Shown: positions 21,378 to 54,164 of the stretch, piece by piece
Layout: each line of letters opens with the position of its first letter
How positions within the stretch are numbered: position 1 is the stretch's first letter
Assembly: GCA_902610905.1 (NCBI GenBank)
Contig: CACLXS010000004.1
Span: forward strand, 22,880-86,879
DNA from: an uncultured SAR86 cluster bacterium
Lineage (GTDB): Bacteria > Pseudomonadota > Gammaproteobacteria > Magnimaribacterales > D2472
Direction: 5' to 3'
DNA: 64,000 nt
Program-made: the position numbers and the translations under genes
Notes under the pieces: generated by a model
Seen by the model: the letters and a program-made list of their open reading frames with translations, nothing else
What the model was told of the DNA's origin: nothing
The model's database searches: none

Positions 21378-22655
21378 ATGAATCTCACTGAAATAAAAGT
21401 TAAACCAATTAACGAATTGGTTGACATAGCATCCGAGCTTGGTCTTGAAGATGTTGGCAGACTCAAAAAACAAGAAATAATTTTTAGAATTTTCAAACAT
21501 AAAGCTTCTGAAGGTATTGATATTTATGGCGGTGGAGTTTTAGAAATACTTAACGATGGGTTTGGTTTTCTTCGTTCTCCAGAGGGTTCATATTGTGCAG
21601 GTGAAGATGATATATATGTTTCTCCAAGTCAGATAAGAAAATTTGGTCTTAGAAAAGGGGATTCTATTGCTGGTAAAATTAGAACACCAAAAGATAAAGA
21701 GAGATACTTTGCTTTAATTCAGGTAGACACTATCAATGGTGAAGAGCCTAAAAATACAAAAAATAAGATTTTATTTGAAAATTTAACACCTCTTTTCCCC
21801 AATGAAAGATTAATTCTTGAACAGGGAAGCGGCTCTAATGAAGATCTTTCATCACGAATTATTGACCTGATAGCACCAATCGGTAAAGGTCAGCGTGGAT
21901 TAATCGTTTCTCCACCTAAAGCTGGTAAGACACTAATGCTTCAGAGCATAGCTCATTCTATTAAAAGTAATAATCCAGAAGTTGAATTAATAGTATTGCT
22001 TATCGATGAGAGACCAGAAGAGGTTACAGAGATGTCAAGAACTGTTAAAGGAGAGGTTGTTGCAAGTACATTTGACGAGCACCCAAGCAGACATGTTCAA
22101 GTAGCAAACATGGTTATTGAGAAAGCTAAAAGGTTAGTTGAACATAAAAAAGATGTTGTTATTTTGTTGGACTCAATTACTAGACTTGGAAGAGCATATA
22201 ACTCAGTTCAACCAGCATCTGGAAAAATACTAAGTGGGGGTGTTGATTCAAATGCTCTAGAAAGACCAAAAAGATTCTTTGGAGCAGCAAGAAATCTAGA
22301 AGAGGCAGGCAGCCTAACTATTTTAGCAACTGCTTTAGTTGAAACTGGATCTAAAATGGATGAAGTTATTTACGAAGAATTTAAAGGTACAGGTAATATG
22401 GAGATCCATTTGGAAAGAAAAATTGCAGAAAAACGTATCTTTCCAGCAATTAATATTAGAAGATCGGGCACACGAAGAGAGGACTTGTTAACTTCAGAGG
22501 ACGAACTCCAAAGAATGTGGGTTCTTAGAAAAATCCTTGATGAAATGGAAGATGCACAATCAATACAGTTCTTAATTGACAGGCTTAAGTCACATAAAAC
22601 AAACGACGAGTTTTTTACTTCGATGAAAGCTGGAAATGGGAAAAAATCTAAATAA
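21378..22655 (+). CDS. rho: Transcription termination factor Rho
   Basis: [42 protein letters not shown]. Confidence 0.98.
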
Positions 22656-50547: not shown

Positions 50548-52779
50548 TTAGTAAGTTAAATTAAATTTAATTCCATAGTTTCTTCCCGGAAGAGGAACTT
50601 CATTCTTAACAAAAGAAGCATGATTTCTTGCAACTTCATCTAGAAGATTTCTTCCGAATAGTGAAACTTTAAGCTTACTTTTTCCACTTAAATCAAATGT
50701 CTTAGTCAGCCTTGTGTCCAGCATTTGATATCCAGCAGTAGCTGTTTCGCCTTCACCAACATCATTTTGTTTTTCAACATCTTTTAAATGTAACTTAAAG
50801 ACTATGTCATCTTGAGCATATGAAAGTAAGTAAACATTTCTTGCAGGATTTATTCTTGGTACGTTATGACCATCTGTAAATTGAGCATTTACAACATCTC
50901 TACCAAAAGATAATGTCATTTCACCAGCACCCAAATCAAATGTTCTTCCAAATTCGATTTCATATCCATCAAACTCAGCATCTTCTTGAACATAATTAGC
51001 ATGAATGAGATTGCCATGACCATGGTCGTCTCCATGATCATCATCGTCATGATGCTCGTCTTCATCTTCATGATGCTCTTCCTCATTATGCTCATCTTCA
51101 TGACCTTCGTCTTCATCAATTAGAGCAATATAGTTATCTACATCATTAATAAAGAAGCTTGCATATGCAAAATATTCTCCGTTATCAAAATTTAATGAAA
51201 TATCAAAATTATTTGAAGTTTCAGAAGTTAGAGTAGGATCTCCTACTTCAAATCTACCTGTAGCATTATGAGGACCATTCATAAATAATTCAATTACAGA
51301 TGGCAGCCTCTCTACGCTAGAATAGCCGAGGTTTAACTCTAATGTATCAGAAAGATCTCTGCCAATACTGACAGCAAAGTTTGAAACATCATCATCTATA
51401 GTAAAATTATCTACATCGCCATGATCTTCATCAGTAACACTTCCAGTTCTTGTAACTTGATCTAATCTAATTCCCAAATCTACATGAAACATATCAAAAT
51501 CTTGACCTACAAAATAACCAAGTGTTAGCACTTCATTGTTTGCGGGATTCATGAATGCCTCTTCTCCAACTATTGAAGAATCTTCATCAATATAATTAAA
51601 TGATAATTTTTGAGTTCTTATGTCATTTGAGATATCAAAAATCGTACTATATTCAGTGGCATTGTTAGCAAAAACTGTTGGAGCATGTTCTTCATGTTCC
51701 TCTTCGCCTTCATGTTCATCATGTCCCTCTTCTTCGGCATGCGCTTCAGTTAAGGTGTAGTCAGTATCTCTATATGTATAGTCAATTTTGTTAATTAAAT
51801 TGCCATTGAGATTATAGGAACCTTTTATAGTAAAGCTTTCAGAATCTGTTGTTGAGAAAATTCTTTCCTCACCATGTTCATCGTGATGCTCATCTTCATC
51901 ATGCTCATCTTCGTCATGATGATCTTCATCACCATGCTCATCTCCATGTTCGTCACCATGGAAAGGGATTCCATATAAACTTTCAAGGTTGTCCACTGAA
52001 ACACCAACATAACCCCAGTCACCTGCTCTTGAAATACCAAATTTAGTAGCCTCTACAGCAAAGTCAGAATTATTAACAAATCCGAGATTTTCTTCATGCT
52101 CATCTTCGTCGTGATGATCTTCATTACCATGATCATCGTGTTCTTCCTCTTCATGCATTATCGCACCATTAGGAATATCATAATTTCCAAATTCAGTATT
52201 TTTATAACCAACATTGACGTTAAAGCCATTGAAATTATTTTTAAAGTTAATGAATTCAGATGAACCATCATTCACTGATTGAGTTTCATAACCAACTTTC
52301 AATTCAGGAAGCTCGTAATTCATTGCTGCGATGAAGTCATCTACAACATTAATGATTCCACCAATAGTTCCATTGGCATAGAGTAATGATGATGGACCCT
52401 TAACAATTTCTATTTGTTCAATATCATTAAGATCAACATCATTTAAATGATCGGCGCCAAGACCAGAAACATCTCTATTCACCATTCCATTTTTTAGAAT
52501 TTTTACTCTAGGTCCTGACATGCCTCTAATTATTGGCTGTCCAACAGCAGCACCATAATCTGCAATAGAAACTCCAAGATAGCTATCAATAGCATCTCCT
52601 AGGCTTGTTGTTGCATCATCGATAATCTCATCGCCGTCTATAACGTACAATGGATTTGTAATTTCGGTTGTGTCTATCAAAGCAGACGTAACCACGATAA
52701 TTTCTTCAACATCTTGTGAAGCGATTTCGTTTGTGTGTATAGCACCTAATATTATTAATGTGCTTAAAAATTTTTTCAT
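50548..52779 (-). CDS. ZnuD-like TonB-dependent metal receptor with His/Asp/Glu-rich loops
   Basis: Plug QPIIRGMSGPRV...DVS....DH, KGPSSLLY, ELFMNGPHNATGRFEVG, RNHASF...PGRN resemble the ZnuD family; four His-acidic tracts; SD AGGAGG. Confidence 0.85.
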   Translation of the reverse strand: MKKFLSTLIILGAIHTNEIASQDVEEIIVVTSALIDTTEITNPLYVIDGDEIIDDATTSLGDAIDSYLGVSIADYGAAVGQPIIRGMSGPRVKILKNGMVNRDVSGLGADHLNDVDLNDIEQIEIVKGPSSLLYANGTIGGIINVVDDFIAAMNYELPELKVGYETQSVNDGSSEFINFKNNFNGFNVNVGYKNTEFGNYDIPNGAIMHEEEEHDDHGNEDHHDEDEHEENLGFVNNSDFAVEATKFGISRAGDWGYVGVSVDNLESLYGIPFHGDEHGDEHGDEDHHDEDEHDEDEHHDEHGEERIFSTTDSESFTIKGSYNLNGNLINKIDYTYRDTDYTLTEAHAEEEGHDEHEGEEEHEEHAPTVFANNATEYSTIFDISNDIRTQKLSFNYIDEDSSIVGEEAFMNPANNEVLTLGYFVGQDFDMFHVDLGIRLDQVTRTGSVTDEDHGDVDNFTIDDDVSNFAVSIGRDLSDTLELNLGYSSVERLPSVIELFMNGPHNATGRFEVGDPTLTSETSNNFDISLNFDNGEYFAYASFFINDVDNYIALIDEDEGHEDEHNEEEHHEDEDEHHDDDDHGDDHGHGNLIHANYVQEDAEFDGYEIEFGRTFDLGAGEMTLSFGRDVVNAQFTDGHNVPRINPARNVYLLSYAQDDIVFKLHLKDVEKQNDVGEGETATAGYQMLDTRLTKTFDLSGKSKLKVSLFGRNLLDEVARNHASFVKNEVPLPGRNYGIKFNLTY
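51001..52155 (-). repeat. Four low-complexity CAT/GAT/GAA-codon tracts encoding His/Asp/Glu loops
   Basis: Tracts at ~51001-51117, ~51685-51741, ~51867-51960 and ~52090-52155, e.g. HGDEHGDEHGDEDHHDEDEHDEDEHHDEH. Confidence 0.85.
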
Positions 52780-52781
52780 AA

Positions 52782-52847
52782 GAACTCCTCCTATAAATAA
52801 AAAATAAAAATTTAAAATATAAAAAATTTATTTTTTTGGTGGAGCTC
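52782..52847 (-). promoter_or_regulatory. Predicted mRNA hairpin pairing the RAPP codons with the receptor Shine-Dalgarno
   Basis: mRNA GAGCUCCACC (52847-52838) pairs with GGAGGAGUUC (52791-52782): 9 of 10 pairs including one G-U; can extend through A-tract/U-tract pairing. Confidence 0.65.
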
Positions 52848-53106
52848 GAGATAGATAGTTACTCTGATTTTTTAAAGAAGAATTATCAGGGGCTAATTCT
52901 TCAACAAAAGAAATTTGAATTAATTCACTGACTTCAGAATCAGCATTTTGAAGATCAAAAGCTTTATTTTCACAAAGTTGACATTCAACAATAGATTCAG
53001 ACTGATGCTCATCAATATGATCATGAAGTAAAGTATCAGCAGAAAGAGATGCAATGAAAAAAATTCCAAAAAATAAAATTAGTTTTGATTTGATATATTT
53101 ATTCAT
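52828..53106 (-). CDS. DUF2946/CruR/CutF-like leader peptide with CxxC and C-terminal RAPP arrest motif
   Basis: Hydrophobic N-term, HDHIDEH, CQLC, ends YLSRAPPKK; 48 bp upstream of a metal TBDR. Confidence 0.75.
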   Translation of the reverse strand: MNKYIKSKLILFFGIFFIASLSADTLLHDHIDEHQSESIVECQLCENKAFDLQNADSEVSELIQISFVEELAPDNSSLKNQSNYLSRAPPKK

Positions 53107-53111
53107 GCAAA

Positions 53112-54164
53112 TTAATGTTTGAGACAGACCAACCCTTTAATGTTACCTGACTTAAGATCAGCAAGTGTATCACTTGCTTGTGAGGCAGGTCTAGTCTCTA
53201 CTTCTATAGGTTCAATTTTACCAGATCGTACAAGTTCCATAAGCTCATTCATCTCTTTTAAACTTCCTACGTATGCACCTTTAATAGTCCTAGCTGTAAA
53301 AGTATGAAGAGGTAGTTGGAGGTTAAAATTACCTCCAATTAATCCAACTAGAATATACAAACCGCCTTTATTAATACCAAATAGACCATACCCAAAAGAT
53401 ATTGAGCTTTGTGATCCAACAAAATCAATAATTTTTGTAACTTTGCCTCCAGATAATCTTATGATCTCTTCAGAAGCATTTTCACTTTTTGAATTTATTA
53501 CATTATTTGCACCAGCTTTTTTAGCAACATCTAGCTTTTTATCATCAATGTCTATAACTATTGTCTTAACGTTATATGCTGCTTGTGCAATTTTTAATGC
53601 TAACAATCCCATTCCACCAGCACTAATTATTACAATACTTTCACCGTCCTTGATTTCTGCTTTCTTTAAAGCACTATATGCAGTTAAGCCTCTGCATGCA
53701 TAACTTCCGGCTAATTCTTCTGGAGTTTCTCCAGCATCAAAAAGATATTTTGCATCTTTTACTAAAACGTATTCACCATAACCACCGTCAACAGAAACAC
53801 CAATATTTTCAGCAGTGAAAGGTGAACAATAGTGCTCCATATCATTTTGGCATTCATTACAGCTGCCACAACCAATCCAAGGATATACAACGTATTTTTT
53901 GCCAATTTGTATGTTTGTAACTTTGTCTCCAACTTCTACAACTTCTCCAAAAACCTCATGGCCCATTGCTAGGTTCTCAGTCACTCTTGATGGAATATGA
54001 GTTTTATCACCCAAGTCAAAATAACCATCATGAATATGTATATCTGTATGGCAGACACCGCACGAGATTGTCTTTATTAGAATCTCTTTACCCGTAGGAG
54101 AGGGCTCATCTATTTGTTGTTCTTCAAGAGGTTCCCCATTTTTAACAACTTTATATGACTTCAT
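53112..54164 (-). CDS. Zinc-dependent alcohol dehydrogenase (MDR family)
   Basis: CGVCHTD, GHE, structural CGSCNEC...C, Rossmann-like SAGGMG. Confidence 0.92.
   Translation of the reverse strand: MKSYKVVKNGEPLEEQQIDEPSPTGKEILIKTISCGVCHTDIHIHDGYFDLGDKTHIPSRVTENLAMGHEVFGEVVEVGDKVTNIQIGKKYVVYPWIGCGSCNECQNDMEHYCSPFTAENIGVSVDGGYGEYVLVKDAKYLFDAGETPEELAGSYACRGLTAYSALKKAEIKDGESIVIISAGGMGLLALKIAQAAYNVKTIVIDIDDKKLDVAKKAGANNVINSKSENASEEIIRLSGGKVTKIIDFVGSQSSISFGYGLFGINKGGLYILVGLIGGNFNLQLPLHTFTARTIKGAYVGSLKEMNELMELVRSGKIEPIEVETRPASQASDTLADLKSGNIKGLVCLKH

Follow-up and report, generated by a model that had tools for sequence, protein, structure and literature searches.

A short leader ORF ending in RAPP as a candidate metal-sensing arrest peptide upstream of a ZnuD-like receptor gene in a SAR86 cluster bacterium

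The window analyzed here is a stretch of 64,000 nucleotides (nt) from an uncultured SAR86 cluster bacterium (assembly GCA_902610905.1, contig CACLXS010000004.1), and the element in question is a short open reading frame (ORF) on its minus strand, hereafter the leader ORF, which stands directly upstream of a gene for a ZnuD-like TonB-dependent receptor (Table 1). An earlier note on this DNA had ascribed to the ORF the geometry of an arrest peptide, namely an export helix, HDHIDEH, CQLC, 41 further residues, RAPP, two lysines and the stop codon, and the ORF translation reproduces this layout exactly. Our analyses suggest that the leader ORF is a cis-acting leader of the CruR and CutF kind, in which metal-relieved stalling of the ribosome would switch the receptor gene by way of a hairpin; from the sequence and from analogy with published systems, we put this reading at about two chances in three.

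Table 1. Positions in the window of the leader ORF, its parts, the junction with the receptor gene and the surrounding genes
Feature	Position	Strand	Remarks
Leader ORF, 92 amino acids (aa), CruR/CutF-like, candidate metal-sensing arrest peptide	52828..53106	minus	MNKYIKSKLILFFGIFFIASLSADTLLHDHIDEHQSESIVECQLCENKAFDLQNADSEVSELIQISFVEELAPDNSSLKNQSNYLSRAPPKK
Residues 1-23, export signal or N-terminal anchor	53038..53106	minus	Lys-rich start, hydrophobic core, SLSA-D; read from sequence
His cluster HDHIDEH, residues 28-34	53005..53025	minus	
CQLC, residues 42-45	52972..52983	minus	
Spacer, residues 46-86	52849..52971	minus	exactly 41 residues
RAPP, residues 87-90, candidate arrest site	52837..52848	minus	codons CGA GCT CCA CCA
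KK and TAA after RAPP	52828-52836	minus	
Predicted hairpin, leader end to receptor ribosome-binding site	52782..52847	minus	minimum free energy (MFE) -17.3 kcal/mol
Receptor ribosome-binding site	52785..52792	minus	AGGAGGAG
Intergenic region between leader and receptor	52780..52827	minus	48 nt, 87% A+T, 2% C
TonB-dependent receptor, 743 aa, ZnuD-like	50548..52779	minus	plug and barrel domains; four long His/Asp/Glu-rich inserts
MerC-family membrane protein, 134 aa	50078..50482	minus	PF03203, E 1.9e-24; Cys/His-rich C terminus
Second TonB-dependent receptor, 867 aa	47409..50012	minus	
Zn-type alcohol dehydrogenase (ADH)	53112..54164	minus	stop 5 nt before leader start
rho	21381-22628	plus	693.5 bits to TIGR00767

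Relatives of the leader ORF are readily found. A word-indexed search returned 172 close relatives, the 120 listed being 85-99% identical to it, and an exhaustive search over 1.84 billion entries gave 31 cluster representatives at E<=0.001. The expectation of the earlier note that standard annotation would call such an ORF hypothetical is borne out, the relatives being listed as nameless or as 'hypothetical protein' and carrying no precomputed Pfam domain, with the lone exception in naming of one cluster that bears a stray kinase name. Scans of the leader ORF against Pfam and NCBIfam likewise assigned no family, and the sub-threshold entries that they raised, DUF7674 (16.2 bits), DUF3978 and InvH, were set aside as noise. 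A profile of the leader family matches 193 of the 266 genomes of the window's order, usually once per genome, and the family occurs in 47 of the 57 high-quality genomes and 21 of the 22 genera of that order; it is widespread there, yet outside every Pfam or NCBIfam model.

The alignment of homologs had been proposed in the earlier note as a test, and variation in RAPP or in the distance from CxxC to RAPP had been named there as the outcome that would speak against an arrest peptide. We examined 70 loci, one per genome, composed of the 30 best profile matches and 40 picked by hand from the listed rows and spread over genera, so that the counts that follow describe a sample that is not random. 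RAPP is present in 65 loci, QAPP in four and RDPP in one; CxxC is present in 64; and the spacer between the two motifs stays within 40-42 residues in all 70 (40 in 22 loci, 41 in 46, 42 in two) while its sequence drifts. Motif and distance are therefore both conserved. The tail after RAPP is two residues long in 60 loci and otherwise one to five, and one to six histidines lie within the 22 residues before the cysteine in every locus. Residue by residue, 18 full-length relatives that are 27-46% identical to the window ORF share an invariant H28, C42, R87, P89, and P90 and a nearly invariant F17, S86, and A88, and the spacer has no majority residue; a larger alignment of 28 sequences agrees with this result, adds C45 to the nearly invariant positions, and has a consensus that is mostly 'x' across the spacer. 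Ten of 149 short relatives have no RAPP and were excluded from the alignments; these match up to the CxxC region or beyond, then diverge, and sit on short contigs, which suggests frameshifted or truncated gene calls.

The RAPP of the leader is also unique within its own assembly. The assembly comprises 1,024,525 bases in 27 contigs, with 32.6% G+C and a completeness of 78.6%, and in its 849 ORFs of at least 150 aa (306,734 residues), neither RAPP nor RGPP occurs, where composition would predict about 0.8 RAPP. Across the whole assembly (3,568 ORFs of at least 40 aa), the leader ORF is the sole ORF of up to 300 aa to carry R[AGSD]PP among its final 12 residues. The layout of motifs in the leader exceeds chance, and the avoidance of RAPP and RGPP has been reported for proteomes more generally (PMC12992588). 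The AlphaFold2 model of the product, made on the 28-sequence alignment, has a mean predicted local distance difference test score (pLDDT) of 63.7 and contains a single helix over residues 3-27; block means of pLDDT are 86-94 over residues 1-20, whereas the spacer has no secondary structure and block means of about 48-56 over most of its length. A product predicted to consist of one helix and disorder fits a peptide that acts while it is nascent. When the family profile was compared with solved structures, zinc-finger peptides came up as possible relatives at E 0.11-0.39 and were rejected as not significant.

The link to the receptor is equally regular. A receptor gene follows the leader in 68 of the 70 loci, starting 32-62 nt past the leader stop codon, and the remaining two have no long ORF downstream within the available DNA. 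The N terminus of the downstream ORF is a receptor plug domain, and Pfam confirmed the receptor in all 11 of the longer loci scanned (n = 12; the twelfth has a receptor gene divided between two ORFs). Between the last RAPP codon and the receptor start codon lie 46-59 nt in 67 of the 68 loci, a distance that is conserved because tail and intergenic lengths compensate each other, a longer tail going with a shorter intergenic region. GGAG occurs within 18 nt upstream of the ATG in two of 48 window genes (first ATG, ORFs of at least 120 aa), the receptor gene among them; Shine-Dalgarno sites thus seem to be rarely used in this genome, and AGGAGGAG stands out. Each of the 67 folded loci likewise has a GGAG ahead of the receptor gene.

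In the predicted hairpin of the window, GAGCUCC from the Arg-Ala-Pro codons of the leader is paired to GGAGUUC, located at the ribosome-binding site, and the tail, rich in A, to the U-rich stretch between the genes. Its fold has a z score of -2.08 (9 of 200 shuffles are equally good), and over the 67 junctions the median z is -2.58, and 42 of them fall below -2. In 60 of these loci, the MFE structure joins the ribosome-binding site to the Ser-RAPP codons. In genus g21 (L111, L112), where the RAPP codons are unable to form this pairing, the ribosome-binding site pairs instead with the tail and stop codons (AACUCUUAA).

The mechanism that these features point to is already published, and the earlier note had re-derived it from the sequence alone; what is new here is a compact family, lacking a Pfam or NCBIfam model, that goes with a ZnuD-like receptor across an order of marine Gammaproteobacteria with small genomes. 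In Bordetella pertussis, CruR (Bp2923, DUF2946) is an exported leader of 145 aa with a CxxC, 45 residues, and a RAPP three residues from the end, and it heads the operon of a TonB-dependent transporter (Roy et al. 2022, PMC9426467). According to that paper, changes in RAPP abolish transporter expression, changes in CxxC abolish the copper response, and altering the spacing by five residues weakens the response; in its model, the stall excludes Rho when copper is absent, and copper releases the stall so that Rho terminates in the 162-nt intergenic region. Roy et al. also state that copper and zinc have no known riboswitch (PMC9426467). CruR has since been described as stalling in vitro with the two proline codons in the P and A sites (PMC12992588, EMBO J 2025). 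The same source reports that RAPP arrest resists EF-P, that the arginine is irreplaceable in four arrest peptides whereas a change of alanine to aspartate is partly tolerated, and that GTDB genomes of Gram-negatives have an excess of signal-peptide-bearing RAPP/RGPP leader ORFs upstream of genes for TonB-dependent receptors. On the other hand, in CutF of Rhodobacter capsulatus, copper prolongs a C-terminal stall during co-translational export, and the stall melts a stem-loop masking the ribosome-binding site of the next gene (Ozturk et al. 2023, PMC9973294; bioRxiv 10.1101/2025.02.05.636593). The 'CutF-like' class defined in that work numbers 5,334 proteins that are small, exported, and furnished with a PP motif at the C terminus; some have mixed Cys/His sites and TonB-like neighbors, and some are probably not copper-specific. 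The place of sensing differs between the two systems, being the cytoplasm in CruR and the periplasmic side in CutF (PMC9426467; PMC9973294).

With CruR, the leader ORF shares its small size, an export signal, CxxC, a spacer of conserved length, a RAPP two to three residues from the end, a place directly upstream of a gene for TonB-dependent metal uptake, a product predicted to be poorly structured, and an expected response in which metal shuts uptake. The differences are nevertheless several. Members of the leader family have 88-96 aa, whereas 27 DUF2946 ORFs that we extracted have 122-159 aa, with one more of 102 aa; the spacer is 40-42 residues here and 43-47 (mode 45) in the 27, whose tails are 2-7 residues long; and a His cluster precedes the cysteines in the leader family. 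The intergenic region is 32-62 nt and AT-rich, as against 162 nt and GC-rich in CruR; the receptor is ZnuD-like and not of the heme, siderophore or copper type; the partner is MerC-like here and PepSY there; and the leader of the window is not the first gene of its row. CutF is resembled in the predicted stem-loop over the next ribosome-binding site within a short intergenic region and in all four features by which the CutF-like class is defined by rule, the ORF being shorter than 150 aa, bearing a signal at its N terminus and PP among its last 15 residues, and having a gene on its own strand at most 1,000 nt away. With CutF itself, a stall prolonged by copper leads to expression of a detoxifying multicopper oxidase, whereas an importer follows the leader here, and the opposite polarity is therefore expected; the CutF stall, moreover, depends on EF-P and a PPP motif, unlike the RAPP arrest, which is reported to be EF-P-resistant (PMC12992588). 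ApdA, ApdP, and ApcA have a C-terminal RAPP core near the stop codon and a localization signal in common with the leader, but these peptides act as monitors of Sec or YidC, and the force of translocation relieves their arrest, whereas the His/Cys patch and the receptor suggest a metal here, and the gene downstream is a TonB-dependent receptor instead of the Sec or YidC gene that marks such monitors. On the strength of these comparisons, we conclude that the leader probably works like CruR and CutF and that it falls within the rule-based definition of the CutF-like class.

The proposed course of events may be set out as follows. The leader product would act while it is still being synthesized, and, to judge from RAPP peptides elsewhere, the ribosome would halt when Pro89 occupies the P site and Pro90-tRNA the A site. 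Counted from the peptidyl transferase center at that point, where Pro89 is attached to the P-site tRNA, CxxC is 44-47 residues away and the His cluster 55-61. The exit tunnel holds some 30-40 residues. Because the spacer is 40-42 residues long, residues 1-45 or so, and with them the export helix, the His cluster, and CxxC, would be outside the tunnel at the stall, so that the view taken in the earlier note, that the spacer has about the length needed to bring the His/Cys cluster out of the ribosome, agrees with this geometry, with CxxC likely just beyond the tunnel. A ribosome reaches about 15 nt beyond the first base of its P site, and the stalled one would cover the RAPP codons, the two lysine codons and the stop codon, which form the 5' arm of the hairpin; the ribosome-binding site of the receptor gene, in the 3' arm, would thereby be freed and the receptor made, probably together with the MerC-like carrier and the second receptor. 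When metal is plentiful, it would bind the nascent His/Cys patch and release the arrest, upon which termination would follow, the hairpin re-form, and uptake cease. Rho, which the genome encodes, may add polarity.

Several observations weigh against this reading. The ADH gene ends 5 nt upstream of the leader ORF, which is not the first in its row of genes, and a same-strand gene ends a few bases upstream of the leader in several relatives too. Kinship with DUF2946 is faint: PF11162 gives nothing at E<=1 against the leader ORF and nothing at E<=10 in its own genome; hhalign of the leader family with DUF2946 aligns 13 columns around CxxC with a probability of 19.8%; and cross-profile searches with hmmsearch reach at most 17.5 bits, on small sets. 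The second cysteine is replaced in six of the 70 loci (CQYN in three, CEYF, CQFY, and CQFH in one each). Genus g5 (L073-L076) has SQAPP for SRAPP in all four loci examined, where CxxC, spacer, hairpin, and receptor are retained, although the arginine is described as irreplaceable in ApcA, ApdA, ApdP, and SecM (PMC12992588). The hairpin, too, fares less well in some tests than in others. The native RAPP codons have no advantage in pairing over randomly chosen synonymous codons (median P 0.30; 0.63 in the window), and RNAalifold found no consensus pair (0) over 39 junction sequences. The mean unpaired probability of the ribosome-binding site is 0.045 in native junctions and 0.15 in shuffles, which are mostly paired too, and for the window locus 45 of 60 shuffles pair the site at least as well.

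Some of these points can be read further. By the Pfam criterion, the leader ORF lies outside DUF2946, and from the sequences, common descent is possible, with convergence as the alternative. PF11162 does find DUF2946 elsewhere, with 5 positives among 151 genomes sampled from the class as a whole and 31 among 121 from another order. Among the named neighbors of the leader in a protein language model, which lie at a score of 0.92 and share few features, DUF2946 accounts for 12 of 30 and DUF2607 for four. An ORF of 102 aa from another gammaproteobacterium (L034; G296, 1402-1710 +), which reads HEINHQFH...CEMC, 45 residues, SARAPP, is intermediate, scoring 23.4 bits with PF11162 and 13.9 with the profile of the leader family. 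DUF2607 (PF10795), on the other hand, matches neither the leader ORF nor anything else in its own genome; a weak example of that family from elsewhere (L121; G276, 1483-1782 +; 99 aa; sub-threshold at 21.1 bits) follows a similar plan of hydrophobic start, His-rich stretch, one cysteine, about 44 residues, IRAPPR, and stop, and its neighbor gene is not recognizable as a receptor by eye. Both ORFs score at the cut-off of DUF2946 or DUF2607 or slightly under it, and together L034 and L121 suggest a continuum of short leader families that current models cover poorly. As to the variant endings, the RDPP form occurs in a genome of another family (L099), and in it and the QAPP forms either the arrest is lost or the sequence context compensates. 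The RNAalifold result is explained by a pairing register that shifts between clades and by MAFFT misaligning the ribosome-binding site. Selection of RAPP codons for pairing, with P above 0.5 in 14 of the 67 loci in the recoding test, was dropped as an idea, synonymous codons pairing equally well; complementarity to the ribosome-binding site therefore comes with any coding of RAPP. That this site is paired in 66 of the 67 loci was not used as strong evidence, as shuffles pair it too.

The best surviving alternative concerns the step after the stall. In the mode of Bordetella CruR, the stalled ribosome would block Rho, its release would allow Rho to terminate before the receptor gene, and the hairpin would be incidental. 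This route is improbable, in our estimation, though it has points to recommend it: rho is encoded within the window, codon choice has no sign of selection for the hairpin, and the end of the leader ORF, with 16 C against 6 G in its last 60 nt, has a stretch richer in C than in G that resembles the region of the coarsely mapped rut site of cruR (PMC9426467). Against it, the intergenic region has only 48 nt with 2% C here, and 32-62 nt in relatives, whereas that of B. pertussis has 162 nt and those of cruR homologs are described as 'generally long' (PMC9426467); a ribosome-binding site of a strength seldom met in this genome and the conserved distance between RAPP and start codon point to control at translation initiation. 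Because the intergenic region is short and poor in C and that distance is conserved, we keep the hairpin as the likelier route.

Less likely again is that the function lies with the finished product, an exported mature peptide of about 69 aa serving as a periplasmic or secreted metal helper for the receptor, with RAPP as a merely slow-translating tail. An export signal, a conserved His/Cys patch, and the adjoining receptor gene would suit such a helper, and CutF was initially conjectured to be a copper chaperone (PMC9426467). The model, however, contains no folded domain; the best conserved part besides the helix and the His/Cys patch is the extreme C terminus ([ST]RAPP and two residues), with 41 drifting residues in between; RAPP is avoided elsewhere in the genome and across bacterial proteomes (PMC12992588); and mature CruR appears to be short-lived (PMC9426467). 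The least probable of the alternatives has the polarity of CutF: metal encountered on the periplasmic side, as the peptide is exported in the course of translation, would lengthen the stall and switch on the downstream genes, in an operon for metal excess and not for uptake. It could appeal to MerC-family proteins being known from mercury resistance (as the Pfam name says), but a MerC-family gene stands at the same place in only 3 of the 12 longer loci, and the regulated gene is a ZnuD-type TonB-dependent importer, whose induction by its own metal would be harmful.

If the leader ORF is a metal-relieved arrest peptide, the metal most likely to be sensed is zinc, which we nevertheless hold at slightly under even odds; copper is clearly a weaker candidate, and the remaining metals taken together come a little behind copper. 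Zinc is a first guess only, a lead given by the ZnuD-like receptor. The best NCBIfam family of the window receptor is ZnuD (NF038289; E 8.4e-63, 213 bits), ZnuD is likewise best in all seven relatives' receptors (188-250 bits), and the only solved relative of the window receptor at E<=1e-10 is ZnuD, 4RDR. The four long inserts of the receptor, rich in His, Asp, and Glu, point the same way. By comparison, of 11 ORFs scanned after true DUF2946 genes, two had no family and none of the other nine had ZnuD as best; these nine, scanned as N-terminal fragments, fell to heme (four), siderophore (two), copper, PqqU, and B12 families (one each). Zur was not found in the 78.6%-complete assembly, where the single FUR-family gene is Fur. 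On the other side, the ZnuD scores lie far below the NCBIfam cut-off of 950 bits, the receptor being ZnuD-like and not a ZnuD equivalog; CxxC is a classic copper motif and points away from zinc; and in genus g21 (L111, L112), a gene for the copper chaperone SCO1/SenC ends just before the leader ORF.

The further proposition that, in streamlined marine Gammaproteobacteria without Zur, a zinc-sensing, RAPP-stalled ribosome controls ZnuD-like uptake, with the RAPP codons themselves forming the switch, is doubtful as a whole. Were this true, zinc would gain its first post-transcriptional sensor of whatever kind, and a single sequence would be both arrest motif and RNA switch, as RAPP codons are by nature complementary to the Shine-Dalgarno sequence. 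Metal-sensing arrest peptides are a young field, with CruR in 2022 and CutF in 2023, both sensors of copper, and the tie to zinc, should it hold, would extend the principle to another metal. It would also explain how the uptake of trace metals may be controlled in very small marine genomes with few regulators. With its short spacer and 48-nt switch, the leader could serve as a minimal model in which to study the release of a RAPP stall by metal bound at the tunnel exit. The family is in any case an annotation gap, being present in most genomes of the order and in RNA libraries from seawater.

Beyond the junction, the row of genes varies from genome to genome. The inserts of the receptor are very long, acidic, and histidine-rich (e.g. 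HEEEEHDDHGNEDHHDEDEHEE and DEDEGHEDEHNEEEHHEDEDEHHDDDDHGDDHGHG) and seemingly far richer in histidine than the His/Asp loop of ZnuD. In two relatives (L105, L107), the receptor gene is present as two ORFs, which may reflect a frameshift or an assembly error. The MerC-family protein has CMIHC near its start and CKKVNCDCHD at its C terminus, and it might supply the passage across the inner membrane for the same route of uptake. Of the 12 longer loci, eight have a second receptor of about 860 aa.

Part of the window stretch is contained in 17 RNA-library runs of marine or salt-marsh origin, and contigs from four of these runs carry the ADH gene, the complete leader ORF (with 0 differences in two runs), and the 5' part of the receptor gene. 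These contigs all break at the AT-rich intergenic stretch, none spanning a junction by at least 31 letters; they show presence only and bear neither on co-transcription nor on termination or regulation, and DNA carry-over is possible. Upstream of the leader, the neighbor in the 12 longer loci is a Zn-type ADH in four, an Fe-type ADH in one, SCO1/SenC in two, and other genes in five. The Fe-type enzyme takes the place of the Zn-type ADH in one genus (L108), an exchange that may be due to chance or may be a metal-sparing swap.

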